Of a stretch of 64,000 nt of DNA, positions 10,652 through 63,214 are shown in pieces. Position numbers and translations under genes: made by a program. The DNA comes from Taishania sp. GTDB lineage: Bacteria; Bacteroidota; Bacteroidia; Flavobacteriales_D; Crocinitomicaceae. Under the pieces are notes generated by a model. It had not been told where the DNA came from. It was given only the letters and a program-made list of their open reading frames with translations, and did not search any database. The stretch covers positions 37,182 through 101,181 of the forward strand of contig JASLGM010000026.1 of assembly GCA_030150045.1 (NCBI GenBank), read 5' to 3'. Within the stretch, counting starts at the first letter, position 1. Each line of letters opens with the position of its first letter.

Positions 10652-10676
10652 AATTTTCTAATATTTTCTTTTTTTA

Positions 10677-10830
10677 GCAGCCAATTTCGGTCTACAGGCT
10701 TTAGTAAACGTGTGAAAAAGTGTTCACTTGCCGCACCCCACGTGCTTCCTTTGGTCGCAGTGGCGTACTTGCGTTCACAACTCTTTCACTTTGTTTAGCT
10801 GACGCCTTTCGCCCGGGCTGGAAAGATCTC
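10677..10830 (+). repeat. Rep-A structured intergenic repeat, copy 1
   Basis: GCAGCCAATTTCGGTCTACAGGCTTTAGTAAA...CCAC(G)TGC-TTCCTTTGGTC-GCAGTGG...TTTAGCTGACGCCTTTCGCCCGGGCTGGAAAGATCTC. Confidence 0.9.
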
Positions 10831-10912
10831 GGTTGCAAATAAACAATCCAATAAATAGTGAAATAAAGGAAATAAATTTTATACATGTACTTATTAGAAG
10901 ACCGTAAATCCT

Positions 10913-11029
10913 GCGCTAAGGATAGGAGTGGATAGCTCGTTTTTCTTTCCCTAATGATAGGGAAGGAAAACGACTAAGAACGGATAGCCTGACGCTTCCC
11001 AAATGTTTTTTTTGGGGAGGGGAGCGCCC
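10913..11029 (+). repeat. Rep-B structured intergenic repeat, copy 1
   Basis: GCGCTAAGGATAGGAGTGGATAGC, hairpin, ACTAAGAACGGATAGCCTGAC, hairpin, AGCGCCC. The closing helix is GCGCT/AGCGC. Confidence 0.9.
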
Positions 11030-14558: not shown

Positions 14559-14581
14559 GTGTGTATTAATGATTTTGCTGT

Positions 14582-17278
14582 TTATTTCAAGACGTTAACT
14601 GAACCCGTATAGACTTCCTTTCCATCATTATTATTGTTTCTAACAGTAGCTTTCCATAAATATTGACCTGAAGGGACAATTTTTCCATTGTAGCTCCCAT
14701 CCCATCCCATTGATGGGTCGAAGGATTCAAAAATCATTTCTCCCCAGCGATTATAAATGGACAAAGAATAATTATATACATCAATTCCTTTAATGCTCAA
14801 TTTCCAGGTGTTGTTATGTTCGTCACCATTAGGAGTGAACGCATTTGGAGCATAAAACAAGATTTGATCTTCTATTTTTAAGTTTAGTGTTAATGTATCA
14901 TTACAACCATAAATAGACGTTACTATTAGTGTAATTGGATATTCGGCTTCTTCGCCCTCCGGATACTTAAAAATAGGATGTTCTAGGATAGATTGGCTAG
15001 GGATTGCACCTGGTGCTAACCATTCCCATGTTACAACATCTTCTGAAGATTTATTATACACAGGTACCGTCGTTTCAAAAATAGATGTGGGGTTATTATT
15101 GAAATTAAAACGTGCCGTTGGAGCAGGGAGGACATGAAAGAAATCTTCAAGTGTTGTCGAATAAACACAACCGAAAATGGATGTGTTTACAACAGTTAAA
15201 GTGTAGGGTCTTGGTGTGAAATATACATGTGAACCGCTGTCTCCATTCATGAAAACATCATTTTTAGTATCACCAAAATCGATGAATGTACTTTTCAATT
15301 CTCCAATGTTTGTAGAGGTATTGGTGAATTCCATTAGCCCCGGAGTACAGTCTTCATTTGATATTAATGTCAATTGGGGAGGGATTGGAGTGGGGAAAGT
15401 AATGTTCATACATGTGTTTACACTTTCAGATGTTCCACAAACTTCGGAAACCGCAACGCAGTATTCAGTGTTCGTTACAGAAGGTTGAACGATTACTTCT
15501 TGAGTTCGCCCTATTTCAACTCCATTTGAAGACCAATAATAAAGGTACTCACTTGAACCTCCTTCAACTGATACAGAAAGTGTGATTGCATTTTCTTGAC
15601 AGATTTGTGTGTCAGGAGTACTTGCAGTAATACTTAAGGGCAAAGGTTCGATTAAAGATTTTGAAATGTTGAAAGGACACCCTTTTGCATCTTTAACTAA
15701 TATATCGTGGATACCCATTTCCAAATCGTTTGCAAAGTCTTCGTTTGCTGCAGTCGCTTGAGGAGAAGTCGTCCATGTGTATGTGTATGGTGCTGTTCCG
15801 TTAGTTGCCAATAGTTTTATTTTTCCATTATCTGCTTTGTGACAAGTAATGTCAGTAAATGATTCTACAATGACATTTAGTGCAGGAATTTCGCTTATTG
15901 TTGCTACCGTTGTTGCTGTGCAGCCATTATTACTAGTGATTTCACAAGTGTAATCTCCTGCAACTAATCCTGTAATGGTTTGAGTGGTTTCTCCATTACT
16001 CCATAAGTACGATTGTGTACCTATTGCTGGTGATATTGTAGCTGTTGCAGTTCCGTCATTTCCATTTCTACAAGAGACCAAAGTTGTGGTGCTTGATGCA
16101 TTTACCGTTTTGTTTTCAACTACAACGGTAGATGTTGCAATACATCCGTCGTCTGTTGTTAATGTTACAGTATATGAACCTTCTGTAAGGTTTGATAAAT
16201 CAGGAGTTGTAGGGGAGCCTGGAGAGCTCCAAGTGTAAGAATATGGCCCCTGACCGTTGTTTACGAATGTTGTAATGGCACCTACACCCTGTCTACAAGT
16301 GTCAGGAACAGCTGTTGCTGTAATTTGACAAGGTTGTATGATTGAACAGTCTGTAGCTCCAGTTGAGCCATTGTTAGAGAATCCGATAGAACCTCTAGCG
16401 CCATCGTAGTTTGTTACTAATAAAACATATACTTCTCCTGGTTGAGCGTTATGGACATTAACTTCTTCTGTTGCAGAAGTAGAGTAGGAACAGTCTACAG
16501 TTTCAGTAAAACGATTAATACTATTGCATCCATCTGCTAAAGTGGGGTATGGGCCATAAAGAGCGAAGTCTACATCAACTGCACGACCTGTATTACTGGT
16601 TTGATGAATGGTTACATTTATGTCCCCTGCATCTTGGACCTCCATGTAAAGCCACATAGCATTTGGAGTTGAGGTTAAACAACTATAACCGCCAAGGTTA
16701 GTACTTTCTATATTACAATAATTGACCTCAGGCATTTCTGTGCAAAAACCTTGTGCTGAATTGCAGTTAGGGTTTTCTCCACCTATGCATTCTTCAGTGG
16801 CTGGGGGAGATGAGGCACAGATACCAAATGTACCTCTATTTGGACTTGATCCATATTTCCAGAATCGGATATATATTTCTTGACCTGGAGTAAGGCCTAA
16901 ACGTGAAATTCGAGGCATAGGATTAACACCTACATTGTCATTGCATTCAATGAGTCTAAAGTTCCCATTACAATTCGGAGCAGTGTAAATAGCCATTGCA
17001 CCATCGACAATACTCCCTGCGAAAGTTATGATAGAGAGCGAACCGTTTGCTGGTACGATTGCTTTATACCAAACATCAGGACCGGAATAGCTACCACAAT
17101 TAGGACGTGGAATCCCTGTGGAATTAGTTGCCCCTTCTGTCGTTCCCAAAATAGGAGAGCAGTTTACACCACTGTTAACAGTAAGTAAAGTTGCGTCACA
17201 AGGATTGTCACCTTGCCCAAAAGTTATGATGGAAAGAAAAGTACACGTAAGAAGTGCGAAAAAAAATCTAAAATTCAT
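14582..17278 (-). CDS. T9SS type-B sorting domain cell-surface protein (SprB-repeat adhesin-like), paralog 1
   Basis: 898 aa with a signal peptide. Two N-terminal Cys-rich modules (GDNPCDA..DVWYK..IECND), SprB-type repeats (CxNGNDG..PYxYxW), a PKD-like module (FGDT..HVY), and a C-terminal gliding-motility CTD FAPNAFTPNGDEHNN..IYNRWGEMIF..WDG..GQY. Confidence 0.92.
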   Translation of the reverse strand: MNFRFFFALLTCTFLSIITFGQGDNPCDATLLTVNSGVNCSPILGTTEGATNSTGIPRPNCGSYSGPDVWYKAIVPANGSLSIITFAGSIVDGAMAIYTAPNCNGNFRLIECNDNVGVNPMPRISRLGLTPGQEIYIRFWKYGSSPNRGTFGICASSPPATEECIGGENPNCNSAQGFCTEMPEVNYCNIESTNLGGYSCLTSTPNAMWLYMEVQDAGDINVTIHQTSNTGRAVDVDFALYGPYPTLADGCNSINRFTETVDCSYSTSATEEVNVHNAQPGEVYVLLVTNYDGARGSIGFSNNGSTGATDCSIIQPCQITATAVPDTCRQGVGAITTFVNNGQGPYSYTWSSPGSPTTPDLSNLTEGSYTVTLTTDDGCIATSTVVVENKTVNASSTTTLVSCRNGNDGTATATISPAIGTQSYLWSNGETTQTITGLVAGDYTCEITSNNGCTATTVATISEIPALNVIVESFTDITCHKADNGKIKLLATNGTAPYTYTWTTSPQATAANEDFANDLEMGIHDILVKDAKGCPFNISKSLIEPLPLSITASTPDTQICQENAITLSVSVEGGSSEYLYYWSSNGVEIGRTQEVIVQPSVTNTEYCVAVSEVCGTSESVNTCMNITFPTPIPPQLTLISNEDCTPGLMEFTNTSTNIGELKSTFIDFGDTKNDVFMNGDSGSHVYFTPRPYTLTVVNTSIFGCVYSTTLEDFFHVLPAPTARFNFNNNPTSIFETTVPVYNKSSEDVVTWEWLAPGAIPSQSILEHPIFKYPEGEEAEYPITLIVTSIYGCNDTLTLNLKIEDQILFYAPNAFTPNGDEHNNTWKLSIKGIDVYNYSLSIYNRWGEMIFESFDPSMGWDGSYNGKIVPSGQYLWKATVRNNNNDGKEVYTGSVNVLK

Positions 17279-17289
17279 TGTAGGATTAA

Positions 17290-17655
17290 TTAATATACAA
17301 AGTAGTTAGAGGAGTATGCTTCAATGGATGAATTTACTTTGTTGATGTGTGTTTTTATATCGATGATTGAAAAAGCACCTTTGGCTTTTGCGGTTAACTT
17401 TGATAAATCTTTAGAAATTTCGAATGAGACAATTCGAGTGTCTGACTGTAAAGATTTTTTTAATAATCTAACAGAGGAATGCTTTAATCCATATAAAATA
17501 ACTTCGTAGTCTGAGTAGACATTTGTAAAGATTGAATGCCCATTTTGTTTGTTCTCATTCATCTTTTGTTGTACTGCTAAAGGCATGTCGATATAGTCCT
17601 GCGAGTAAACTGAATTTGCAAGCAGTGTTATTGTTAAGGCAAAAAATATTTTCAT
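17290..17655 (-). CDS. small secreted protein of unknown function, partner paralog 1
   Basis: 121 aa from the ATG at 17655, with signal MKIFFALTITLLANSVYSQ. Ends 11 nt before the start of the adhesin gene. Paralogous to 20632-20997. Confidence 0.75.
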   Translation of the reverse strand: MKIFFALTITLLANSVYSQDYIDMPLAVQQKMNENKQNGHSIFTNVYSDYEVILYGLKHSSVRLLKKSLQSDTRIVSFEISKDLSKLTAKAKGAFSIIDIKTHINKVNSSIEAYSSNYFVY

Positions 17656-17874
17656 TAAAGGCAATTAAAAGGGTGTTAAGTTCAGTAAAAAGAAGAGAAT
17701 AATACAAGGAATAGTCGAAGTACGTAAAAAAAAATAATTCAATGGTAGTAGTCCTAAGGTGATTTCTTTTGTTTATATAGTAGGAGAAGTACCTAGATAG
17801 TGTTTTGTTCAGTAGTTATTTAATAATAATAAAAAGGAAATTTTTATTACTGTTATTATTGGTATGCTATAAAT

Positions 17875-17902
17875 GAAAAAAGCCGATCATATTTGATCGG
17901 CT
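17875..17902 (-). terminator. intrinsic terminator of T9SS paralog 2
   Basis: AGCCGATCA..TGATCGGCT plus a T-run on the minus strand. The same stem sequence recurs at 21209-21238. Confidence 0.8.
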
Positions 17903-17921
17903 TTTGTTTGAGAAGACTTGT

Positions 17922-20621
17922 TTATTTTAAGATGTTAAGTGATCCTGTGAAAACTTCTTTTCCATCATTATTCTTATTTCTGATCGTTGCTTTCCAAGAA
18001 TACTGACCACTTGGAACGAGTTTTCCATTATATGTTCCATCCCATCCCATGGAAGGATCAAAGGATTCAAATACCATTTCTCCCCAGCGGTTGTAGATCG
18101 ATAAAGAGTAATTGTAAATGTCAATTCCTTTAATACTCAACTTCCAAATGTTGTTAAATTCATCTCCATTAGGAGTAAATGAGTTAGGAGCAAAGAACAA
18201 TATTTGATCTTCAATTTTTAAGTTTAATGTTAAAGTGTCAGTACAACCATAAATTGAAGTTACAACAAGTGTAACTGGGAATTCTGCCTCATCACCTTCA
18301 GGGAATTTAAAAATAGGATTTTCTAAATTTGATTGACTAGGTACAGCTCCAGGAACTGTCCATTGCCATTGAATAACATCTTCTGTTGATTTATTATAAA
18401 CTGGTACTGTAGTTTCAAAAACAGAAGTAGGGTTTGTACTGAAATTGAAACGTGCCGTTGGAGCAGGTAATACTTTGAAGAAATCTTCTAACACAGTGGA
18501 ATATACGCAACCAAATACAGATGTGTTAACTACTGTTAGTGTATAGTCTCTCGGTGTAATGTATACATGAGAACCGCTATCTCCGTTTAAGAAAATGTCA
18601 TTTTTTGTATCACCGAAATCGATGTAAGTACTTTCTAATTCACCAATATTAGGAGAAGTATTTGTGAATTCCATCAAACCTGGCGTACATTCTTCATAAG
18701 ATTTCAATGTCAGCTGAGGAGGAATTGGAGTTGGAAAGGTGATTGTTATGCATGTTTTTACACTATCTGATGTTCCACATGCTTCTGTTACCGCAACACA
18801 ATATTCTGTGTTTGTTATTGTAGGATCTACAACTATTTCTTGCGTGTTACCAATTTCAATACCGTTTGATGACCAATTGTAGATATAATCGCTTGAACCA
18901 CCTTCAACTGTTACAGTTAGTGAAGCTGTATTTTCAGGGCAAATCTGAGTATCTGGAGTACTAGCAACGATGCGTAATGGTAATGGCTCATCTAAAGTTT
19001 GAGAAATGGTAAATTCACATCCATTTGCATCCACGATTAAAACATCATGGTCACCAACTGATAAGTCATCAGCAAAATTTTGGTTTGCGGCTGTAGCACT
19101 AGGAGAGGTTGCCCAAGTGTAGGTATACGGTGCTGTCCCATTTGTTGTAAGTAATTGTACTTTACCATCATTACCTTTATTACAAGAAACATCAGTAAAT
19201 GAATTTACAATAACATTTATTGAAGGGATTTCACTAACTGTGGCAACTGCTGTGGCTGTACATCCATTACTACTTGTTATTTCACATGTATAGTCCCCTG
19301 CTGTTAAACCAGTAATTGTTTGTGTTGTTTCGCCATTGCTCCATAAATAAGACTGTGTGCCATTTGCAGGACTTATTGTTGCAGTAGCTGTTCCGTCATT
19401 TCCATTTAAACAAGAAATTAATGTTGTGGAACTTGATGCGGTAACAGTTTCATTTCCTACTACAACAGTTGAAGTAGAGGTGCATCCGTCATCTGTTGTC
19501 ATTGTTACAGAATATGAACCAGGTACAAGGTTTGCAATGTCCGCAGTTGTTGGGTTACCAGCTGAACTCCAAGCATACGTATAAGGTGCTAATCCATGGG
19601 TGATTTCCGTTGTTACTGCACCAACACCTTGTGCACAAGTGTCAGGAATTGCAGTAGCAATAATTTGACAAGGTTGGATGATGGAACAATCTGTTGCACC
19701 TGTTGAACCATTGTTTGAAAAACCGATAGAACCTTGTGCTCCATTGTAATTTGTTACCAATAACACATAAACTTGACCAGGCTGAGCATTAGGGACATTT
19801 ACTTCTTCAGTTGCTGAAGATGAATAAGAACAGTCTACAGTTGGAGTGCTAGGGTTTATTGTACCACAGCCGTCAGCTAAATTAGTATAAGGTCCATAGA
19901 GCGCGAAGTCAACGTCGATTGCACGACCTGTATCGCTTGTTTGATGAATGGTTACGTTAATATCCCCAGCGTCTTCAACTTGCATGTACAACCACATCGC
20001 GTTAGGTGTTGACCCTAAACAACTATATCGACCAAGATTTGAACTTTGAATATTACAATAGTTAACCTCTGGCATTTCTGTACAGAAACCTTGTGCCGAG
20101 TTACAGTCAGGATTATCACCACCTATGCATTCATCTGGTGGTACTGGTGAATTAGCACAAATTGAAAAAGTACCTCTTGTTGATGAAGAACCATATTTCC
20201 AAACGCGAATGTAAATCTCTTGACCAGGAGTTAGTCCAGAGCGTTCAATTAAAGGCATTAATCCAGTGCCTCCATCGTCATTACATTCTATTAATGTAAA
20301 ATTTCCGCTACAACTAGGTGCTGAATAAATTGCCATTCCTCCATCTGTAATAGTACCTTCAAATGTGGAAACTCTCAACGTCCCAGTTGGAGGAACTATT
20401 ACCTTATACCAAACATCGGGTCCAGAATAACTCGCACAACCTGGAGCTGGAATGTTTGGGGTGTTTGTTGCACCAACTGTGGTCCCCGCAATTCTAGTAC
20501 AAGCAGACCCATTGGCTACAGTTAAAACTTGTGCGTCACAAGGATTATCTCCTTGACTATAAGAAGATGTTATGGCAAACAATGTGGATGCTACGAATGT
20601 GAAAATTGATCTAAGATTCAT
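17922..20621 (-). CDS. T9SS type-B sorting domain cell-surface protein, paralog 2
   Basis: Collinear with 14582-17278 over its full length, with most aligned residues identical by eye. The start at MNLRSIFTFVAS (ATG at 20621) avoids overlap with the small upstream gene. Confidence 0.92.
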   Translation of the reverse strand: MNLRSIFTFVASTLFAITSSYSQGDNPCDAQVLTVANGSACTRIAGTTVGATNTPNIPAPGCASYSGPDVWYKVIVPPTGTLRVSTFEGTITDGGMAIYSAPSCSGNFTLIECNDDGGTGLMPLIERSGLTPGQEIYIRVWKYGSSSTRGTFSICANSPVPPDECIGGDNPDCNSAQGFCTEMPEVNYCNIQSSNLGRYSCLGSTPNAMWLYMQVEDAGDINVTIHQTSDTGRAIDVDFALYGPYTNLADGCGTINPSTPTVDCSYSSSATEEVNVPNAQPGQVYVLLVTNYNGAQGSIGFSNNGSTGATDCSIIQPCQIIATAIPDTCAQGVGAVTTEITHGLAPYTYAWSSAGNPTTADIANLVPGSYSVTMTTDDGCTSTSTVVVGNETVTASSSTTLISCLNGNDGTATATISPANGTQSYLWSNGETTQTITGLTAGDYTCEITSSNGCTATAVATVSEIPSINVIVNSFTDVSCNKGNDGKVQLLTTNGTAPYTYTWATSPSATAANQNFADDLSVGDHDVLIVDANGCEFTISQTLDEPLPLRIVASTPDTQICPENTASLTVTVEGGSSDYIYNWSSNGIEIGNTQEIVVDPTITNTEYCVAVTEACGTSDSVKTCITITFPTPIPPQLTLKSYEECTPGLMEFTNTSPNIGELESTYIDFGDTKNDIFLNGDSGSHVYITPRDYTLTVVNTSVFGCVYSTVLEDFFKVLPAPTARFNFSTNPTSVFETTVPVYNKSTEDVIQWQWTVPGAVPSQSNLENPIFKFPEGDEAEFPVTLVVTSIYGCTDTLTLNLKIEDQILFFAPNSFTPNGDEFNNIWKLSIKGIDIYNYSLSIYNRWGEMVFESFDPSMGWDGTYNGKLVPSGQYSWKATIRNKNNDGKEVFTGSLNILK

Positions 20622-20631
20622 AGTGTATGTT

Positions 20632-20997
20632 TTAATAGACAAAGTAGTTTGTTGTGTAGTTCTCAATAGAAGCTCCGCTTGGAGCAGTAATCAATTTCAT
20701 GTCCTTTATTGTAAAAGCCCCTTTTGCTTTAACAATTAGTTTGGAATAGTTATTCGTTACTTCAAATGATACAATTCTAGTGTCATTTTGAAGAGAATTT
20801 TTTAAAGGATTTATTGATGTTTGATTTAAACCGTACAATGTAATCTCGTAGTTAGAATATACATCAGTAAATATTGGAAGATTATTTTGTTTGTTCAAGT
20901 CCATTTTTTGTTGGACAGCTAAGGGCATGTCATTATAGTCTTGCGAAAAGGAATGGTTTGCAAGTAGTACTAATGTTAAGGCAAATATCAATTTCAT
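20632..20997 (-). CDS. small secreted protein of unknown function, partner paralog 2
   Basis: 121 aa with signal MKLIFALTLVLLANHSFSQ. Shares DMPLAVQQKM, TRIVSFE, KAKGAF and NYFVY with 17290-17655. Confidence 0.75.
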   Translation of the reverse strand: MKLIFALTLVLLANHSFSQDYNDMPLAVQQKMDLNKQNNLPIFTDVYSNYEITLYGLNQTSINPLKNSLQNDTRIVSFEVTNNYSKLIVKAKGAFTIKDMKLITAPSGASIENYTTNYFVY

Positions 20998-21208
20998 AAT
21001 AGTTTATTAAAACTTGGTTAATATCAGAATATAGACTGAATTTAATTGAAAAGGTTGCCATAGATGAAGGGAATTAATTGTGATATTTAGGAATCCTATA
21101 AGTGTTTTTTTTGGGACGTGAGGATAATCGTTTTATGATAACATGGGATTTATCTACGTGTTTGGTGGCTTTTTGAAGAGGGAGACTTGTTTATCATTGG
21201 AATGCTGT

Positions 21209-21238
21209 AAAAAAAAAGCCGATCAATTTTGATCGGCT
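21209..21238 (-). terminator. intrinsic terminator of T9SS paralog 3
   Basis: AGCCGATCA..TGATCGGCT plus a T-run on the minus strand. Confidence 0.8.
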
Positions 21239-21256
21239 CATATAGAAAAAAAGGTG

Positions 21257-23968
21257 TTATCTCAAGACGTTTACATAACCGCTGTATGTACTTCTGCCTT
21301 CATTGTTTTTGTTTTTAACTTGTGCTTTCCATGAATATTGACCTGTTTGAACTGGTTTACCATTGTAATTACCATCCCATCCAATAGCAGGGTCATTTGT
21401 TTCAAAAATTGCTTCTCCCCATCGGTTATATACAACTAGATTGAAATTATATATATCTGCACCTTTCAAAGAAAATTTCCAACTGTTATTAATTTCATCT
21501 CCATTAGGAGTAAATGCATTTGGTGCAAAGAAAAGGATATCATCTTCAATTCTTAAATCTAAAGTTAAAGTATCTGTACAGCCTAATTGAGAAGTTACAA
21601 TTAATGTTACTGGAAAGACTCCTTCTTCTCCTTCTGGGTAAGTAAAGATTGGGTTCTGTGCAGAAGAAGTACTCGGAGTAGCTCCTGGTGCAGACCATTG
21701 CCAATTGATTACATCCTCAGTTGATTTATCATAAGTTGGAACAGTTGTTTCGAAAACAGATGTGGGATTGTTATTGAAGTTAAAACGTGCTGTAGGAGGT
21801 GTAATTGCTCTGAAAAATTCATCAAATACTTGTGTGTAAACACATCCGTAGATTGAAGTGTTTGAAACGGTTAACGTATAGTTCCCTTGAAAAAGATACT
21901 CATGTGAACCACCAGCTCCATTTAAAAAGTTTTCATTTTTAGTATCTCCGAAGTCAATATAAGTAGATACTAATTCACTTTGATTTGGAGAGTCGTTGTT
22001 GAACATTAACATTGCAGGTAAACAATCCTCGTATGCTGTTGCTGACAATTGTGGTGGAATTGGAGTAGGAAAGGTAATAACCATACAAGATGATGTCATA
22101 GCTGATGATCCACACTCTTCTGTTAATTCTAAACAATATTGTGTATTCGTTGTTGTGGGATCTACTGTAATTGATGAAGTAGAGCCAATCAATTGGTTAT
22201 TTGAATACCAGTTGAAAATGTAAGGGCTTGATCCACCAGCTCCAGTTGCATTCAATTGCAGTTGGTCTTCAGGACATATTTGTGTGTCTGGAGTGATTTG
22301 TGAAATAGATAAAGGTTGTGGTTCACTAATAACTTGTGAAATAGTTTGTGTACAACCATTAGCATCTGTTACTAAAATAACATGAGTGTCTGCGATTAAG
22401 TCAAGAGCTGATGCACTATTTGAAGCTGTTCCAGAAGGAGAGTTACTCCATGTGTATGTGTATGGAGCTGTTCCGTTTGTCGTTGATAAGTAAATAGTAC
22501 CATCTGCTGCTCGGTTACAAGTTGCATCGGTGAAGCTATCTATAGTAACAGTCATTGGTGTAATTTCTGATACAGTAACTGTCGCTACGCCTGAACAGCC
22601 AACTGTTGAAGTTATGGTGCAAGAATGTGAGCCTGCTGTTAAACCTGTTGCAGTTTGTGTTGTTTGACCATCGTCCCATAAATAAGAAATCGTGCCGAGT
22701 GCAGGTGTCATGACAGCGGTAGCAGTTCCATCTGCCCCATTAGAGCAACTAACAAGTGTAGAGGTGGCTGTGAAAGCAGCAGTTTGATTAGGGACAATTG
22801 CTGTAGCGACTCCTGTACAGCCATTCAAATCTCTTACTTGAACCTGATGAGAACCAGCTAATACGTTGTTTACTGTTGCAGTTGTAGCTCCTAAACTAGG
22901 CCAGTTATAAGTGTAGTTTCCTTGACCACCAGCTGCGCTTACGGTAACTGAACCACTTGATGAATTACAGATATCGGTTGTGGTAGTTGTTTGCAAACTT
23001 AGATTGCCAACAGTAATCCATGATGTATCTCCTGTATATGCCGTGCTCGAATTACAAGCTGTAGAAGAGTAAGAAATATAATAACCAAAACGACCTATTG
23101 TATTGTTAGATAAGTTTAACACACCGTTGTTATAAGGAAAAGTCTGACCATTTGTAGAACGCCAAATTAATGAAGTTGGATCGTTTCTACGGATAGTCTT
23201 CATTGGAATTTGTGATGATGTATATGTGTTTGTGTTTGATGGAGAGGAGGGGGCAAATAAACGTGCGTCGTTTGTTGCGGTCCATTGCGAATTATTTCTC
23301 CCTGTAATGATTATAGCTTGATTACCGGCTGCATTTTGTAATCCTTGTGTTGCACGACCGCCATTCCAACCTGTGTTGATTGATTTTTGTGAAATATGAA
23401 ACTCAATCTCATTTGTAGATTCATGAAATGAAGCAGCCATGTAATTACAATCTGGGGCACTAAACATCTGAATATTCTCGTACACGACATAAAATACTCT
23501 GTTTGGAGCAACACCTAAAGTTTGATAGTAGATACGACCACCATTTGATGGATTGATATCTTGATAACAAAGCATTGCCGTGTTTTTTGCAGTTGTGAAT
23601 GAAGTTGATGGAAAAGTTGTAACTGATCCTGTACTCCATTCACATGATCCACCTGCTCTTGAAGTTTCAAAAGAAATTAATCCATTTGATCCAATTACCG
23701 CTTGCGTGTAGTTTTGACCATAAAAATTAAATGTAAATCCAATTGAAACAGCAGCAGACCAACGGTCATCTGTTAAAGTCACGTAGCTTGGATTGTTTAG
23801 AACTATGGTTCCGCCTGTTACATTGGTTAATGCATCACATACATCGATACGTACAGGTTGGTTAATGCAAACAAGTGAATCTTCACCCACGCATAGTTGT
23901 TGACTGAATACATTACCTTGCGTCGCTAAAAGAAGAAGGAGCATGTAAGCGTTTTTTAACAGTTTCAT
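21257..23968 (-). CDS. T9SS type-B sorting domain cell-surface protein, paralog 3 (different N-terminal head)
   Basis: 903 aa. The C-terminal ~570 aa (SprB repeats, PKD-like module, CTD) are collinear with paralogs 1 and 2. The N-terminal ~330 aa are unrelated and may be NIDO-like (FNFYGQNYTQAVIGSNGLISF). Confidence 0.9.
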   Translation of the reverse strand: MKLLKNAYMLLLLLATQGNVFSQQLCVGEDSLVCINQPVRIDVCDALTNVTGGTIVLNNPSYVTLTDDRWSAAVSIGFTFNFYGQNYTQAVIGSNGLISFETSRAGGSCEWSTGSVTTFPSTSFTTAKNTAMLCYQDINPSNGGRIYYQTLGVAPNRVFYVVYENIQMFSAPDCNYMAASFHESTNEIEFHISQKSINTGWNGGRATQGLQNAAGNQAIIITGRNNSQWTATNDARLFAPSSPSNTNTYTSSQIPMKTIRRNDPTSLIWRSTNGQTFPYNNGVLNLSNNTIGRFGYYISYSSTACNSSTAYTGDTSWITVGNLSLQTTTTTDICNSSSGSVTVSAAGGQGNYTYNWPSLGATTATVNNVLAGSHQVQVRDLNGCTGVATAIVPNQTAAFTATSTLVSCSNGADGTATAVMTPALGTISYLWDDGQTTQTATGLTAGSHSCTITSTVGCSGVATVTVSEITPMTVTIDSFTDATCNRAADGTIYLSTTNGTAPYTYTWSNSPSGTASNSASALDLIADTHVILVTDANGCTQTISQVISEPQPLSISQITPDTQICPEDQLQLNATGAGGSSPYIFNWYSNNQLIGSTSSITVDPTTTNTQYCLELTEECGSSAMTSSCMVITFPTPIPPQLSATAYEDCLPAMLMFNNDSPNQSELVSTYIDFGDTKNENFLNGAGGSHEYLFQGNYTLTVSNTSIYGCVYTQVFDEFFRAITPPTARFNFNNNPTSVFETTVPTYDKSTEDVINWQWSAPGATPSTSSAQNPIFTYPEGEEGVFPVTLIVTSQLGCTDTLTLDLRIEDDILFFAPNAFTPNGDEINNSWKFSLKGADIYNFNLVVYNRWGEAIFETNDPAIGWDGNYNGKPVQTGQYSWKAQVKNKNNEGRSTYSGYVNVLR

Positions 23969-26252: not shown

Positions 26253-26289
26253 ATTTCCCTTAAACGAATGTTTTTTACAAGTTTTTATT

Positions 26290-26433
26290 GGCTGCCATTT
26301 CCGTCTACAGGCTTTAGTAGCTTGCCAAAAACAGGTTAGCTAATTGTTCTGAAACGCTCCTAAAGTCGCCTTTCCTCACAAAGCAAACTTTCTGTTTTTT
26401 TGCAAGCCAGCTATCACCCTCCGCCGGGGCAGG
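26290..26433 (+). repeat. Rep-A copy 2 (variant core)
   Basis: Canonical ends GGCTGCCATTTCCGTCTACAGGCTTTAGTA and AGCTATCACCCTCCGCCGGGGCAGG. The outer stem GCTTGCCAAAAACAG/CTGTTTTTTTGCAAGC is retained, but the central loop is degenerate. Confidence 0.8.
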
Positions 26434-26483
26434 GGATCCATTTTTATTAAAGAAATGATTTTATAAGTGGAGATTTTTCTTTT

Positions 26484-26630
26484 CAGCCCGGGCAAAGCAC
26501 GATAGCTAAAGGAACTGAAAAAGGAGTGAATCCTGCATTTAGTACTGCGACCAAAGGAAGCACGTACTAAAGCAGATAGAGAACCCTTTTTTCAGGAGTT
26601 TACTAAAGGGCGGAGACCGTTAAGGCTGCC
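26484..26630 (-). repeat. Rep-A copy 3
   Basis: The reverse complement reads GGCAGCCTTAACGGTCT..CTTTAGTAAA..TAGTAC(G)TGC-TTCCTTTGGTC-GCAGTACTA..CTTTAGCTATC..CCCGGGCTG. Confidence 0.9.
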
Positions 26631-26664
26631 ATAAACATTTCCTTTTCAATATAGATTTAAAAGA

Positions 26665-31807: not shown

Positions 31808-31836
31808 AGGCTGTTCATTTTGGACAGCCTTTTTTG
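31808..31836 (+). terminator. intrinsic terminator of the OmpA-family gene
   Basis: AAGGCTGT..ACAGCCTT followed by TTTTT. Rep-A starts immediately after the T-run. Confidence 0.8.
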
Positions 31837-31838
31837 TT

Positions 31839-31983
31839 GGCATCCATTTCGGTCTACAGGCTTTAGTAAAATCGTGAACAAAGGGTTTGCTGTAAGTCGG
31901 TCACGAGCTTCCGCTGGTCGCTGTGGCCAACCAACAGAAACCTCTTTTTCACTTCTTTTAGCTATCGCCTTTCACCCGGGCTG
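31839..31983 (+). repeat. Rep-A copy 4
   Basis: GGCATCCATTTCGGTCTACAGGCTTTAGTAAA..TCAC(G)AGC-TTCCGCTGGTC-GCTGTGG..TTTAGCTATCGCCTTTCACCCGGGCTG. Confidence 0.9.
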
Positions 31984-32093
31984 AGTTCGTTTTTCAGAAA
32001 CAAACATTTCCTCCATCACAATATCTGAATATGCGCATATTACAATCAGAATGGGAATTTTAGCGTCAATAATTGATTTGAAAACGGAACTTG

Positions 32094-32162
32094 CAGCCCG
32101 GCCTGAGTGAAGCTCTTTTGACGCAGGAAAAAAGCGGGAACGGAGGACGGATTAAGCTGCCC
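32094..32162 (-). repeat. Rep-A copy 5 (69-nt mini form, ends only)
   Basis: The reverse complement reads GGCAGCTTAATCCGTCC....GGCCGGGCTG. It faces copy 4 across about 110 nt of AT-rich spacer. Confidence 0.6.
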
Positions 32163-32219
32163 AAAAGAAAAAAAGTGTACCTTTCCAACAGATTTGAAAC
32201 GATTTCTTAATGATTTAGC

Positions 32220-41883: not shown

Positions 41884-41994
41884 GGGCGTTACCTTGCCAA
41901 ATACTTGGCAAGGTCAGGCTTTTCGTTACTAGTCCGCTTTATCCCCAAAAAAAAATGGGAATAAATGCGGGCTATTCACTGCAATCCTTAACGC
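41884..41994 (-). repeat. Rep-B copy 2
   Basis: The reverse complement reads GCGTTAAGGATTGCAGTGAATAGC, hairpin, ACTAGTAACGAAAAGCCTGAC, CCTTGCCAA-GTAT-TTGGCAAGG, TAACGCCC. Confidence 0.9.
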
Positions 41995-44893: not shown

Positions 44894-45143
44894 TTCGAAA
44901 AAAAAATAGGGTTAATAACTCTTTGTATGTACACAAAAATAACGCTTAATAAAGACCTGGAAAAACTTTTCAATGCCTATAAACGCCCCATTTTTCACAA
45001 CAATTCTTAAAATTCTAAAGGAAAGTTAAAATGTCAATCCTTTGTCCTATTTTCTCCCGAAAAAGTTCTCGAAAAATTAGCCTCATTCTTTCAATAATAG
45101 ATGTTGAGGAGTCCAAATACAGCTTTTGATTAGATTATTTTTT

Positions 45144-45285
45144 GCAGCCTTAACGGTCTTTGTGCTTTAGTCAAGTCGTGCACCGTAAGTGCTGCACTTT
45201 AGCCAGCGAGCTTCCATTGGTCGCTGCTACCAAAAGGCATTACTAACGCCGCACTTCCTTGAGCTATCGCACGCCGCCCTGGCTG
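45144..45285 (+). repeat. Rep-A copy 6 (subfamily with an extra hairpin)
   Basis: GCAGCCTTAACGGTCTTTGTGCTTTAGTC..GC(G)AGC-TTCCATTGGTC-GCTGC..GAGCTATCGCACGCCGCCCTGGCTG. Differs at 8 of 142 positions from the copy at 47227-47368. Confidence 0.9.
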
Positions 45286-45440
45286 GGGAATCCCAGTGAG
45301 AATATAAGATTCCGTTAAAAGTGAAAGTATTTCTGACTACTTTTTCAAAACCAATTTCAAGCAATTATTCTTAATAAAGAATATTGAAACTCAACGAAGT
45401 GTTTATATTCAAATCCTTATGTAAACGATTTTTTGATAAA

Positions 45441-45594
45441 CAGATCTTCCAGCCCGGGGGAAGTTTCGGTAGCTAAACGTACGTAATACGTTGTGAACCT
45501 TAGTTTTGCGCTGCGACCAACGGAAGCACGTGCAAAGCTGTAGGTGAACACGTTTTTAGAAGTTTACTAAAGAACGTACACCGAAATGGCTGCC
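45441..45594 (-). repeat. Rep-A copy 7
   Basis: The reverse complement reads GGCAGCCATTTCGGTGTACG..TTTAGTAAA..TTTGCAC(G)TGC-TTCCGTTGGTC-GCAGCGCAAA..TTTAGCTACCGAAAC..CCCGGGCTGGAAGATCTG. Confidence 0.9.
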
Positions 45595-45791
45595 AAAACA
45601 GGATTAATTACTATGTTTTTTGTGAGAATAGTGAACTTATATGACATTAAAGCTTTATTTTTGGATTTGTAAACGGATTCACAGAAAAATAAAATCCGCG
45701 TAAAAACAAGTGTAAACCATTAATAATTATTGGTGTTCACTGTTTTGGATAAGGTTGAAAAAGAAAATAAAACGCTAATTACGAAAACATC

Positions 45792-47185: not shown

Positions 47186-47224
47186 AACCGTTGATGTGAG
47201 CAATCATGTCAGCGGTTTTTTTTT
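47186..47224 (+). terminator. intrinsic terminator of the Hint-domain gene
   Basis: Imperfect hairpin AACCGTTGA..TCAGCGGTT followed by a 9-nt T-run. Rep-A starts right after it. Confidence 0.6.
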
Positions 47225-47226
47225 GG

Positions 47227-47368
47227 GTAGCCTTAACGGTCTTTGTGCTTTAGTCAAGTCGTGCACCGTAAGTCCTGTACTTTAGCCAGCGAGCTTCCGT
47301 TGGTCGCTGCTACCAAAAGGCATTACTAACGTCGCACTTCCTTGAGCTATTGCACGCCGCCCTAGCTG
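47227..47368 (+). repeat. Rep-A copy 8 (same subfamily as copy 6)
   Basis: GTAGCCTTAACGGTCTTTGTGCTTTAGTC..TTCCGTTGGTC..GAGCTATTGCACGCCGCCCTAGCTG. Confidence 0.9.
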
Positions 47369-47505
47369 TGGTCAGAAGCAAAAATGTAGTAGTGTTGTTT
47401 TAAGGAGTAATTGGTCTTTCACCTTTTTAATTTTTTTTCTGGTTGAAAATGAAAAAATGCTTTATTTTAACATATTGAAACTCTTGATAAAATTTAGGAA
47501 AAGCC

Positions 47506-50304: not shown

Positions 50305-50409
50305 GCGTGAAGGATAGGAGTGAAAAGCCCACAGGGGATACACAATTTATTGGGTAGAGCCGAGGACTTGTAGCGGATAGCCTGACCCCAATGCCTTGGG
50401 GGCACGCCC
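50305..50409 (+). repeat. Rep-B copy 3
   Basis: GCGTGAAGGATAGGAGTGAAAAGCC..ACTTGTAGCGGATAGCCTGAC-CCCCAA-TGCC-TTGGGG-GCACGCCC. The closing helix is GCGTG/CACGC. Confidence 0.85.
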
Positions 50410-54927: not shown

Positions 54928-55036
54928 GGGCGTTACCCAACCCTTTGTCAAAAAAAGAGGAAGGTTGGGTCGGGCTTTTCGTTACAATCTTTTTGTTCGT
55001 TCCTCCAAAAAGGATTTTCTCTGCAATCCCTAACGC
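54928..55036 (-). repeat. Rep-B copy 4
   Basis: The reverse complement reads GCGTTAGGGATTGCAGAGAAAATCC..GTAACGAAAAGCCCGAC-CCAACC..GGTTGG-GTAACGCCC. Confidence 0.85.
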
Positions 55037-55048
55037 AAACTGGAAAAA

Positions 55049-55897
55049 CTAACGATTTACATTCTCTCGAACAAAATCATATTTTTCTTTGCGTTTGAAT
55101 AAGGTGTATTCTTCAATATATGGCGCGTTTGGAATAAAACCATAATACTGTGATCCAGAATGATTGTATAAATAAATGTCATAGATTTGATAAAGGTTGG
55201 ATCCAATTTTACCTTCAAAATAAGCCTTGTCAATATACGGTAGGATGAATTCCCATGTGATATTTATTTTACTAGGAAAAGCGAGTGCTTTTTCAATTAA
55301 TAAATCTAATTCTCCCATGGAGATCCCTAAATCCAATTGATTAGGGAGGGTGTTATTGTTCATTTTTGCAATTTCTACTATTTTGACAATTAATTCAAAA
55401 TGTTGATTCCATGAATTAGGATTGATGAGCTCATTGTTGTTTATAACTTCTGATTTATTCTTTAATTGTTTGATGACGTTGGAAACTGAGTAGGAAAAAT
55501 AATTGTTTTGAATCCATTGTGGATGGTAGATCAAAGATTGCTCAATCATCCAATTTTGTAGATTGTTTTCATAGACTAATTGGTTGATATAGTAAAATCG
55601 ATTTTGAATTATAGTATCATTGAAGGTATAGAAATAACCATGGTTTTTCATTAGATCGATGATTTCACCTTTAAACGTTTCAATGTGTTGATTTTTTAAT
55701 AAAAAATACGAGAAATAAAGCGTATGATCTGGTAATAGTATTCTGTCTTCGGAAGACTTTACTTCCTTATAATATGCAAATTGATTATCGAAAGAGGCAT
55801 TCATATCAATAAGTACAATTTTTTTATGCGGTTGTGCATCGTATTGCCCTAATAGAATAAAGGGCAATGAGAAAATTAGTAGTAATCTTGATTTCAT
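55049..55897 (-). CDS. hypothetical secreted protein
   Basis: 282 aa with a signal peptide, rich in N, Y and I, and no recognisable motif. Confidence 0.6.
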   Translation of the reverse strand: MKSRLLLIFSLPFILLGQYDAQPHKKIVLIDMNASFDNQFAYYKEVKSSEDRILLPDHTLYFSYFLLKNQHIETFKGEIIDLMKNHGYFYTFNDTIIQNRFYYINQLVYENNLQNWMIEQSLIYHPQWIQNNYFSYSVSNVIKQLKNKSEVINNNELINPNSWNQHFELIVKIVEIAKMNNNTLPNQLDLGISMGELDLLIEKALAFPSKINITWEFILPYIDKAYFEGKIGSNLYQIYDIYLYNHSGSQYYGFIPNAPYIEEYTLFKRKEKYDFVRENVNR

Positions 55898-55996: not shown

Positions 55997-56164
55997 GCGT
56001 TAGGGATTGCAGCGGTTAGCTCTCTTGCGGTTCATTTTTTTGAAAGAAGTGTACGAACTAAATTATTATTTTTTTTTGGGAGAAAAGATGCAAGAGACTA
56101 GTAACGAAAAGCCCGCCCCGTTTTACTTTCCGAGAGAAAGGAGGAGGTAAAACGGGGAACGCCC
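55997..56164 (+). repeat. Rep-B copy 5 (long first hairpin)
   Basis: GCGTTAGGGATTGCAGCGGTTAGC, TCTCTTGC..GCAAGAGA, CTAGTAACGAAAAGCCCGC, CCCGTTTTAC..GTAAAACGGG, GAACGCCC. It is preceded by a GGCTGCC fragment. Confidence 0.85.
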
Positions 56165-58361: not shown

Positions 58362-58985
58362 GTTTAACGAAACAACACATCAACAAATTATTATCTATCC
58401 TTAATCTTAAGGAAACACGAATTAACACTTTGGTAAAACGATTTAGCTAAATGCTTGTTATCTTTGTTGTGTATGAAAATCGTAAAGGAAATAATGCGCG
58501 GAGCAGGACAAAAACGGAAGGAAACGAATCAAATTGATGTTCAAGAAGTGATTTCCATTCCTTTTTTCTTTCAACTACAGCGATGCCAGCCCTTTTGTTT
58601 GAATCCTTTTACCGCCAATTTCTTATCGCGATTTTCCTTTCCCCGAATTTCTTATTCAAAAATAGTAGAACCTACTCTACCTTTAGTTAACAGCCAAGAT
58701 CACACCGTTGTCGTATTTCACAAGAATATTTACTTAAAACGTAAAGCATTCCTTGTCGTTCAAAGCCTTCTACTTTTACAATTAACCTCGTTCTATAAGC
58801 GGTTCAAAAAGCAAACGAGCTTACCCGAAACGCAAAATAGGTTATAGTTTAAATCAGCACTGCATCCGTTTTTTCAAGTGTCATCACAAAGAAACACCCT
58901 TGACAATTACCAAATAGATTATCCGTCAAAATGCAGTGAACAATACGACAGCGACTTGGTTTTCTTATGCTTACATTTCTTTTTT

Positions 58986-59138
58986 GGCGTCCATTTCGGT
59001 CTACACGCTTAAGTGAAGCCTAATAAAAACGGTTCACCAGCTGTTTACCACGTGCTTCCGTTGGTCGCAGTGGTAACCTAGCGTTCACACGCTTTTATTA
59101 GGCTCCAGCTATCACGTTTCGACCGGGCCGAAGATCTC
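58986..59138 (+). repeat. Rep-A copy 9
   Basis: GGCGTCCATTTCGGTCTACACGCTTAAGTG-AGCCTAATAAAA..TTACCAC(G)TGC-TTCCGTTGGTC-GCAGTGGTAA..TTTTATTAGGCT-CCAGCTATCACGTTTCGACCGGGCCGAAGATCTC. Confidence 0.92.
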
Positions 59139-59209
59139 ACGAATCAATCAAACGTTCGGTACAAGTGGAGCTTTAATTTACCAAGATTGTTTATCTGAAA
59201 ACAATATTT

Positions 59210-59332
59210 GCGCTAAGGATAGTAGTGGATAGCCCGGAGTTCCTCCCCAACGCATTGGGGAGGAACGAGGACTAAGAACGAATAGCCTGACCCAAGTGCC
59301 TGACCGGAAGGAAAGGTACGCAGGGTAGCGCC
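59210..59332 (+). repeat. Rep-B copy 6
   Basis: GCGCTAAGGATAGTAGTGGATAGC, GTTCCTCCCCA-ACGCAT-TGGGGAGGAAC, ACTAAGAACGAATAGCCTGAC, second hairpin, TAGCGCC. The closing helix is GCGCTA/TAGCGC. Confidence 0.92.
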
Positions 59333-59487
59333 AAAAAAAAAGAAAACAATATCGTAACCGAAAAAAAGAATAGGGTGGAGTTGAACTTAAATGAAAAGGA
59401 ATTACACGCGTAGTGGAGAAAAGAAGAATTAGTTTTCCTAGGTAGCAGTCACGAAGGGTGGCTGAAAAATCACGAATCGAAATCTAT

Positions 59488-62910: not shown

Positions 62911-62936
62911 CTGTATTAAGTTTCTCTTTTTTTTTT

Positions 62937-63082
62937 GGCAGCCCATTCGGTCTACGCGTTTTAGTAAAGTTGTAAAATGCCATTCACACACCTGTTGGCA
63001 ACGTGCTTCCTTTGGTCGCAGTTGCCAAATGGTGTTCATAGGCTTTTTACTTCCTTTAGCTATCACCGCTCCGCCCTGGCTG
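62937..63082 (+). repeat. Rep-A copy 10
   Basis: GGCAGCCCATTCGGTCTACGCGTTTTAGTAAA..TTGGCAAC(G)TGC-TTCCTTTGGTC-GCAGTTGCCAA..CTTTAGCTATCACCGCTCCGCCCTGGCTG. It starts right after a 10-nt T-run. Confidence 0.92.
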
Positions 63083-63107
63083 AACTGATTCTTGAAAACG
63101 GATTCTC

Positions 63108-63214
63108 GCGTTAGGGATAAAAGCGGCATCCTTCTTCTCCAAGTAAACTTGGGGGAGAAGATATAGCGAATAGCCCGACGCCTTACTCAAGACTTTGAGG
63201 AAGGAGAAACGCCC
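63108..63214 (+). repeat. Rep-B copy 7
   Basis: GCGTTAGGGATAAAAGCGGCATCC, TCTTCTCC..GGAGAAGA, TATAGCGAATAGCCCGAC, CCTTACTCAA-GAC-TTGAGGAAGG, AGAAACGCCC. Confidence 0.9.

Follow-up and report, generated by a model that had tools for sequence, protein, structure and literature searches.

The stretch of DNA analysed here (the window) comprises 64,000 nucleotides (nt) from a Taishania sp. (GCA_030150045.1, contig JASLGM010000026.1, positions 37,182 to 101,181 of the forward strand) and is ordinary chromosome from a deep-branching member of the Flavobacteriales. Its genes encode a response regulator, a thioredoxin-rhodanese protein, an efflux outer-membrane protein, MutS2, pirin, TauE and SprB/CHU_C type IX secretion proteins, and no mobile-element genes were seen in its annotation. 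The window also carries seven copies of a structured repeat, Rep-B, named c1 to c7 in order of position, and nine copies of a second repeat, Rep-A. An earlier reading made from the letters alone (the sequence-only reading) had described the Rep-B copies, and their coordinates, strands and alignment over the conserved blocks were all borne out. That reading did not recognise the family, and here it was wrong: Rep-B is Flavo-1 (Rfam RF01705), a family already known, and the finding as posted is a rediscovery. The cmscan-type search it had proposed returned this match, an outcome that it had itself named as a refutation, and the seven copies are real and correctly described members of the family.

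The identification rests on two covariance models. In the Rfam scan all seven copies matched Flavo-1, two of them above its gathering cut-off of 42 bits (54964-55045 on the minus strand at 52.5 bits and 63103-63184 on the plus strand at 48.7 bits) and five below it (28.8-39.3 bits, E 7e-5 to 0.055). We also made a covariance model, R1, with a seed of 29 foreign copies and six window copies, c5 being left out; with filters off, a search of the 64 kb recovered these seven and, apart from one weak candidate (Table 1), nothing else. Their scores are 41.7-75.3 bits (E 3e-8 to 1e-16), and c5 is among them although absent from the seed. The Flavo-1 core, GGAUWGNAGYGR ... ARCGRAWAGCCYGAC, is present and is paired with covariation. 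The host belongs to the Bacteroidota, as expected for Flavo-1: the closest MutS2 homologues are from Flavobacteriaceae (68% identity), and both SprB and CHU_C domains occur. Apart from Flavo-1, the Rfam scan of the window gave no match to a hammerhead, another ribozyme or a riboswitch. Weinberg et al. 2010 (PMC2864571) gave Flavo-1 one sentence, and the family has no known function.

The fold is a three-way junction and is larger than the published Flavo-1 model. In the Rfam/Weinberg consensus the element is a single long hairpin of 76 positions, with unpaired 5' bases, that ends just after AGCCCGAC. The elements studied here are closed by an additional helix of 5-6 base pairs (P1), which encloses the long arm and a second hairpin. 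The 3' strand of P1 and hairpin 2 are visible in the flanks of the published seed sequences, where they were never annotated; the Rfam model is truncated, and both features lie outside it. The minimum-free-energy fold of c6 is the proposed junction (-55.4 kcal/mol and z=-5.3 as RNA, z=-4.25 as DNA, z=-3.2 for the reverse strand), and RNAalifold predicted the same junction when given no structure. The 5-mer that precedes AG-GGAU has a perfect downstream complement in 110 of 121 elements, GCGTT being paired with AACGC in 57/59 elements and GCGTG with CACGC in 30/30, and 23 of 32 rare P1 5-mers are matched by a complement of their own, where the control predicts 1.8. Across 116 elements matched by R1 in five orders of Bacteroidota, 97.1% of pair cells are paired, compared with 28-48% when the partners are slid. 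Compensatory changes occur at 15 of the 18 pairs and in all five helices, in these 116 sequences (35 in the seed); pair 15:77, for example, is A-U in 62 and U-A in 52, and pair 20:72 is C-G in 58 and U-A in 42.

Nearly all of the conserved bases sit in the junction and in the two 3x3 G-N-A/G-N-A internal loops of the long arm, whose cap is a hairpin free to vary. Hairpin 2 is short, dispensable and can shrink to almost nothing, and P1 is followed on its 3' side by a conserved, unpaired CCAAA tail. The ends are sharp: information content falls to zero right outside Y|GCGUK...MACGC-CCAAA on both sides, with position -1 (Y) conserved. All window copies are of this form, which we call type I (GCGUKAGGGAU...AGCCYGAC...MACGC-CCAAA). 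The published seed also holds a type II, UAGCC-CCGAU...AGCGGGA, which has no type I P1 and dominates in Flavobacterium psychrophilum and F. johnsoniae. Six identical type I copies from F. psychrophilum (NC_009613) are present in Weinberg's seed. They lie at 570785(-), 1039046(-), 1244341(+), 1590815(+), 1726586(+) and 2504159(+) and may belong to a larger repeat. Their number equals that of the six rRNA operons of the species.

Table 1. Flavo-1 (Rep-B) and Rep-A copies in the window, with the parts of copy c6. R1 and Rfam denote the scores from the two covariance models.
Feature	Position	Strand	Description
c1	10913-11029	+	Type I; P1 GCGCT/AGCGC; R1 64.5 bits; Rfam 39.3 bits, E=7e-5
c2	41884-41994	-	P1 GCGTTA/TAACGC; R1 69.9 bits; Rfam 35.3 bits
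c3	50305-50409	+	P1 GCGTG/CACGC; R1 71.2 bits; Rfam 29.0 bits
c4	54928-55036	-	P1 GCGTTA/TAACGC; R1 75.3 bits; Rfam 52.5 bits
c5	55997-56164	+	Hairpin 1 ~70 nt longer than elsewhere; R1 41.7 bits; Rfam 28.8 bits
c6, whole element	59210-59332	+	P1 GCGCTA/TAGCGC; R1 69.0 bits; minimum-free-energy fold is the three-way junction
c6, P1 5' strand	59210-59214	+	GCGCT; pairs with 59327-59331 (AGCGC)
c6, long arm	59216-59288	+	P2-P4, two 3x3 G-N-A/G-N-A internal loops and variable hairpin 1; the part covered by the Rfam model
c6, hairpin 2	59290-59326	+	Variable; outside the Rfam model
c6, P1 3' strand and tail	59327-59336	+	Conserved unpaired C(C)AAA tail, from the position profile
c7	63108-63214	+	R1 69.9 bits; Rfam 48.7 bits
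Possible eighth, degenerate copy	32090-32166	+	R1 14.6 bits, E=0.15; P1 GCAGC/GCTGC and CCAAAA tail kept, core decayed
Rep-A	10657-10847	+	
Rep-A	26270-26457	+	
Rep-A	26478-26651	-	
Rep-A	31818-32007	+	
Rep-A	45125-45301	+	
Rep-A	45429-45614	-	
Rep-A	47209-47385	+	
Rep-A	58967-59146	+	
Rep-A	62918-63104	+	

The structural model of the sequence-only reading has a helix that closes the element, a long arm whose junctions are conserved and a further, variable hairpin; it holds in this larger set and exceeds the published one. The P1 covariation, whose loss it had named as a reason for rejection, survives in an alignment of 116-121 elements. Each closing-helix variant it listed is in the sequence (Table 1), as are the hairpin stems it quoted and the expanded hairpin 1 of c5. 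Its statement that the hairpins share no sequence between copies is true within the window and fails for the family as a whole, in which some tips are found repeatedly (of 121 elements, 10 have GAGGNACGA and 16 have AGCGNAGCG). The window's own copies are as diverse as the whole family (core identity 0.737 vs 0.723). Seven copies in 64 kb had been called very dense, which is a fair description but not an exceptional value: F. psychrophilum has 128 Flavo-1 matches in about 2.8 Mb, and the sampled genomes that bear the element have about one further copy per 58 kb. A scan of one genome per species with an exact pattern over both core blocks found the same core at at least 119 loci, all of them in Bacteroidota (Flavobacteriales, Sphingobacteriales, Bacteroidales, Chitinophagales and Cytophagales). 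An association with phages was rejected, with only 23 matches in IMG/VR and 0 in GenBank phages.

On chromosomes the element is independent of gene orientation. In a set of 128 elements, 30 were sense and 38 antisense to the flanking genes, 25 lay between convergent and 14 between divergent genes, and in either orientation the element was nearer to a gene 3' end (about 55 nt, median) than to the next 5' end (126-195 nt). No recurrent neighbouring protein family was found among them, only large paralogous families such as histidine kinases. The position profile of the family showed no promoter box at a fixed distance and no conserved T-run or terminator beside the elements. Copies of one genome have more similar cores (identity 0.86) than copies of different genomes (0.76; permutation p<0.0005). 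The organism is isolated, its nearest MutS2 homologue being only 68% identical, and the comparison for empty sites drew on L120, a distant locus and the only syntenic one obtained (48% protein identity); spacers of 85-89 nt without a match stand there where c4 and c5 lie in the window. An orthologous copy is shared by two Algibacter species. It ends 12 nt before a start codon, one of its pairs shows a compensatory change, and its hairpin 2 is entirely different.

The element also occurs on plasmids from several phyla, the majority with genes for conjugation, and its arrangement there is uniform. BLAST searches with the consensus and the 5' core placed it on 79 plasmid records, mostly of Bacteroides, Phocaeicola and Parabacteroides, with Moraxella, Paraclostridium and Terrisporobacter as further hosts; 38 of the records are typed as conjugative. 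A search with the 3' core added Shewanella. R1 confirmed full-length type I copies and scored them at 73 bits on B. thetaiotaomicron p5482 (two copies), 77.5 bits on a B. fragilis plasmid, 45.9 bits in Capnocytophaga, 56.3 bits in Sphingobacterium, 59.4 bits in Mucilaginibacter, 65.7 and 55.7 bits on Moraxella ovis pMOV1, 59.6 bits on an M. bovoculi plasmid (four identical copies), about 36 bits on a Shewanella baltica plasmid (three copies), 53-69 bits on Paraclostridium bifermentans plasmids (four records) and 17-27 bits for three weak copies on a Terrisporobacter plasmid. All 25 copies, on 10 of 10 backbones, lie opposite the coding strand of the adjoining gene block, with their 5' ends toward the gene starts. 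Genes for ArdC-like or zincin metallopeptidases are present in four of these backbones: p5482, B. fragilis, S. baltica and Sphingobacterium, in the last of which the gene belongs to the downstream block. The neighbours include ssb on the Capnocytophaga plasmid and, elsewhere, genes for ParB-like proteins, radC and Moraxella relaxase/coupling-protein operons beside anti-restriction clusters. The Terrisporobacter copies are each 323-326 nt from a start codon, and this constant spacing implies that they are part of a repeated upstream module. On the P. bifermentans plasmids (L144-L147) the element sits in a conserved non-coding backbone, with a second conserved hairpin-like block, TCAGAGGGGCACGACCGTAAGGTCAT, about 100 nt upstream; the P2 pair GGG/CCC is changed there to GCG/CGC, a variant also found in whale-fall metagenome seeds.

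For the leading regions of conjugative plasmids the rule reported is that the genes have the transferred strand as their template and are preceded by folded Frpo/ssi signals (PMC11541004). By this rule the transferred strand would be the one that bears the plasmid element, at the place of a promoter or a priming site. Our preferred explanation, in which our confidence is about evenly balanced, is that the window copies, which are chromosomal Flavo-1 type I elements, represent a strand-specific single-stranded DNA signal dispersed over chromosomes in the manner of REP/ERIC repeats, not a small-RNA (sRNA) gene. A broader proposal is more tentative and may well be wrong: that Flavo-1 elements are strand-specific, cross-phylum single-stranded DNA signals whose junction mimics a fork or promoter on conjugatively transferred DNA and sets off complementary-strand or early-gene synthesis ahead of ArdC-like, ssb and similar genes, that they are to Bacteroidota, Moraxella and clostridia what Frpo/ssi is to its own hosts, and that they have colonised chromosomes in Flavobacteriia. 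The analysis shows the family identity, the fold with its covariation, the sharp ends, the distribution and the orientation patterns on chromosomes and plasmids, whereas DNA as the folding molecule, the binding factor and the mode by which the copies spread are points that we infer. One strand of each copy folds into the three-way junction, and under the preferred explanation this junction, with its G/A-rich loops, would keep its fold when SSB coats the DNA. On plasmids, where the element precedes ArdC-like, ssb and other neighbouring genes on the presumed transferred (template) strand, it would recruit a replication or transcription factor of host or plasmid that is widely conserved, and complementary-strand or RNA synthesis would begin. 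Our preferred guess for this factor is PriA or primase acting on a fork-like three-way junction, the alternative being RNA polymerase, as on Frpo. On the chromosomes of Flavobacteriia the same element would have spread as a REP/ERIC-like intergenic repeat, tolerated mostly just downstream of genes and in either orientation.

Several features of the fold bear on whether RNA or DNA is the molecule under selection. The strand under constraint is the sense strand: it folds better in 100 of 115 elements, and the stems contain 43 G.T mismatches against 18 A.C. G.U makes up 1-2% of pairs compared with 7.8% in 18 tRNAs from the same loci. Among terminal loops we counted 20 GNA triloops vs 2 TNC and 20 GNNA tetraloops vs 3 TNNC, along with 3 GNRA tetraloops and no UNCG. 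GNA and GNNA are the classic stable loops of DNA mini-hairpins. The fold is equally intact in copies sense and antisense to their neighbours. In F. psychrophilum the authors of the transcriptome described the 128 matches as lying "indistinctly sense or antisense" of transcribed regions, many being untranscribed, and did not accept them as bona fide RNAs; on the arrays, copies 0001 and 0006 were at background while the opposite strand was expressed. The sequence-only reading had offered a functional RNA or a structure-specific DNA site as alternatives. These data favour the second; the genomic context, the pairing statistics and expression data from the literature weaken the first.

An sRNA gene, the type under which Rfam files the family, is the strongest of the rival explanations and is nevertheless unlikely. 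It supposes that the copies, or a subset of them, yield a stable trans-acting RNA of ~100 nt, for example one that binds or titrates a conserved protein through the G/A-rich loops. The sense-strand-specific features, the purine-rich 3x3 loops typical of RNA motifs, the sharp ends (U at position -1, a CCA-like tail left unpaired), and the covariation scored by the original authors would all be consistent with such a gene. Several F. psychrophilum copies also give a moderate sense signal on the arrays that rises in the same samples as the tRNAs and clusters with tRNA-like profiles, for which cross-hybridisation is possible. Against this, a conserved promoter or terminator was not found beside the elements, orientation relative to genes is random, operon-antisense copies are at array background, tRNAs have 4-8 times as large a share of G.U pairs, hardly any GNRA or UNCG loops occur, and the plasmid copies are all on the template strand of the neighbouring genes. 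Because of the context, the wobble-pair and loop statistics, the inconsistent published arrays and the one-strand plasmid copies, the sRNA label is disfavoured and Flavo-1 is probably not an sRNA gene. The FopS sRNAs of Bacteroides, which have a single-stranded seed, a terminator and promoters of their own, are unrelated to it.

We also consider it improbable, slightly more so than an sRNA gene, that Flavo-1 is a selfish miniature mobile element of the REP/RAYT, PATE or MITE kind, the core being only a transposase recognition site and the plasmid copies insertions into transferred single-stranded DNA. The sharp ends, the multi-copy intergenic occurrence, the homogenisation within genomes and the absence from the syntenic locus L120 agree with this explanation, as do near-identical copies at different sites in related Bacteroidales metagenome-assembled genomes and the sets of identical copies in F. 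psychrophilum (6) and M. bovoculi (4); strand-specific insertion would moreover give a uniform strand on plasmids. The expected marks of transposition were not seen. No target-site duplication was found, the longest words shared between flanks being equal to those of a shuffled-pair control. There was no guide-to-target (flank-to-core) covariation of the IS200/IS605 kind, no recurrent nearby transposase and, apart from one truncated copy in L039, no orphan half-elements enclosing a gene. Replication strand was assessed with the genome coordinates of Weinberg's seed, with the origin taken near coordinate 0. The sense strand was the leading-strand sequence for 52 of 90 elements in F. psychrophilum and 20 of 35 in F. 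johnsoniae, which is no significant bias, and a two-changepoint scan gave no strand partition. Type II elements are unbiased (39/71), while type I elements show a weak trend (13/19 and 5/6, or 18/25 in two genomes; 60:45 by a GC-skew proxy on the fetched loci; 5/7 in the window). These counts therefore exclude a strong bias of the IS200/IS605 type. A core conserved across phyla, far above what REP-RAYT pairs show, and a repeated plasmid position just upstream of the same kinds of gene are also at odds with a purely selfish element.

Specific mobile-element classes were rejected individually. An IS200/IS605-derived (PATE) or REP/RAYT origin lacks a conserved target or cleavage tetranucleotide (only the -1 Y is conserved), guide covariation and a lagging-strand-template bias. 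A partner Y1 (HUH) transposase may lie elsewhere in the genome; none was among the 20 window open reading frames (ORFs) scanned. A classical MITE is contradicted by the lack of target-site duplications and a flank-repeat distribution equal to the control, and an integron attC site by dispersed copies of mixed orientation with 5' GTT and 3' AAC (attC sites have 5' AAC and 3' GTT and form arrays of one orientation behind cassettes).

A cis-acting RNA is the least likely of the three: the position of copies near gene 3' ends, the excess of convergent (25) over divergent (14) locations, the start of c4 only 12 nt past the stop codon of the ORF at 55049-55897, the Algibacter copy with its compensatory change and the folding on both strands suit a fold in the 3' or 5' untranslated region that protects mRNA ends, directs RNase processing or modulates read-through, as for some REP, ERIC and BOX repeats, but the conserved unpaired bases are strand-specific while half of the copies would be transcribed as the reverse complement, the structure is no better kept in sense copies, many F. 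psychrophilum copies lie outside transcribed regions, and the plasmid pattern is left unexplained.

Several observations weigh against the single-stranded DNA signal that we prefer. The plasmid configuration is found for only 52 of 107 chromosomal copies and for 4 of the 7 in the window; chromosomal copies thus do not share it, and the plasmid function may not apply to the seven window copies. The transferred strand is deduced from gene orientation. Inspection of the folds showed neither convincing -35/-10 hexamers nor a Bacteroidota -33/-7 box in the conserved stems, and the ColE1 primosome assembly site (site region of L153) was matched by neither R1 nor the Rfam Flavo-1 model, so that homology to it was rejected. 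Evidence of mobility is lacking, with neither an empty-site/filled-site pair between close relatives nor a partner enzyme found, and the replication-strand counts show no bias. The tRNA-like array signal in F. psychrophilum points in the same direction, and the orthologous Algibacter copy, kept under structural constraint, also fits a cis-acting RNA.

Several known systems invite comparison with the element. With Flavo-1 as published it shares the conserved core, the long-arm pairing, the phylum and the multi-copy intergenic habit, to which our analysis adds the covarying closing helix, the second hairpin and the conserved CCAAA tail; the Rfam type 'Gene; sRNA' is not supported by context. Frpo/ssi signals are described as promoters or priming sites that work on single-stranded DNA and belong to the leading region of conjugative plasmids (Masai & Arai 1997, cited in PMC11541004). 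The likeness to them is one of arrangement and consists of a strand-specific fold, often in several copies of one orientation, which on the plasmids precedes ssb and genes of the anti-restriction type on the strand presumed to be transferred. Flavo-1 differs in being a three-way junction and not one long hairpin, in having no -35/-10 hexamers in its conserved stems, and in its occurrence in Bacteroidota, Moraxella, Shewanella and clostridia with, in addition, more than 100 chromosomal copies in random orientation. REP/BIME, ERIC and pneumococcal BOX repeats likewise occupy intergenic sites in either orientation, for the most part close to gene 3' ends; they are small, structured, modular and mosaic with other repeats, as Flavo-1 is with Rep-A and in head-to-head pairs in other genomes. 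Those repeats, however, are simple palindromes limited to a genus or family, whereas Flavo-1 is an asymmetric three-way junction with unpaired bases conserved across the phylum and beyond. PriA primosome assembly sites (phiX174/ColE1 n') would resemble it as folded single-stranded DNA active on one strand only, and there is a short motif resemblance: type I cores have GAGCGAGGAC..AGCGGAAAGCC, the ColE1 site GAGCGAGGA..AGCGGAAGAGC. PriA has a fork as its substrate, and a three-way junction is fork-like. A 'GAAGCGG consensus' is associated with n' sites.

Paired and repeated arrangements of Flavo-1 were seen elsewhere. Head-to-head pairs occur in three unrelated genomes (L048 1437-1791, L063 5749-6032 and L066 3382-3688), with spacers of 103, 106 and 107 nt that have no evident mutual similarity, and tandem pairs in L011 and L064 have a spacing of about 220-230 nt. 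In rumen and gut Bacteroidales metagenome-assembled genomes (L034, L036, L046, L051, L074, L079, L104 and L114) the elements are followed on the 3' side by runs of tandem-like repeats of 7-8 nt, which vary by locus (e.g. ttgaaaa, ttaacaa, gactacaa).

Rep-A is about 180 nt long and has no Rfam match at E<=10. Four of its nine copies lie 4-83 nt upstream of a Flavo-1 copy on the same strand (10657->10913, 31818->32090, the latter the weak copy, 58967->59210 and 62918->63108). The pair was considered as a composite shared across genomes and rejected, Rep-A being absent from 120 loci of other Bacteroidota. All Rep-A copies except one contain GCTTCCNNTGGTCGC (at 59054-59068 and seven further sites; 8 matches vs 0.02 expected). 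The reverse complement of this sequence, GCGACCAAAGGAAGC, forms the tip of hairpin 1 in Flavo-1 copies of the Flavobacterium type (F. psychrophilum; L080 1731-1745). The minus strand of Rep-A forms a long hairpin with a 3x3 G-N-A/G-N-A loop (GAA/GUA, z=-5.2), and Rep-A may be a distant, opposite-strand cousin of Flavo-1. A local motif, GAAAAY/GGAAAC...ATTYY, stands 10-16 nt before P1 in c2, c3, c6, c7 and the weak copy (5 of 8 copies; e.g. 59197-59209 and 63094-63107); it is not family-wide, and a similar motif closes several Rep-A copies. Copy c6 is bracketed by an 11-nt direct repeat, GAAAACAATAT (59197-59207 and 59342-59352), the second preceded by a run of nine A; this is the sole case in 127 elements and is compatible with chance.

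Two further features of the window are of note. The ORF at 55049-55897 on the minus strand, bracketed head-to-head by c4 and c5, encodes 282 amino acids (aa) with no Pfam domain on record; it has one homologue (48% identity) among 5.8 billion proteins, and the syntenic locus of that homologue is without elements. At 14579-23968 on the minus strand are three tandem units of ~3.3 kb with 69-79% identity, each coding for a protein of ~900 aa, and the one scanned carries a SprB repeat and a CHU_C type IX secretion signal.

Flavo-1 is among the most abundant 'sRNA' families in Rfam, where it has stood as an orphan sRNA for 15 years. What is new beyond the databases is the larger, corrected structure and the case that the family is misfiled. 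The extended model with P1 and hairpin 2 recovers all seven window copies, of which the Rfam cut-off keeps two, and would better annotate hundreds of elements per flavobacterial genome. If the single-stranded DNA proposal is true, Flavo-1 would be the first candidate early-establishment signal for plasmids of gut Bacteroides and their relatives, one that is testable with p5482.

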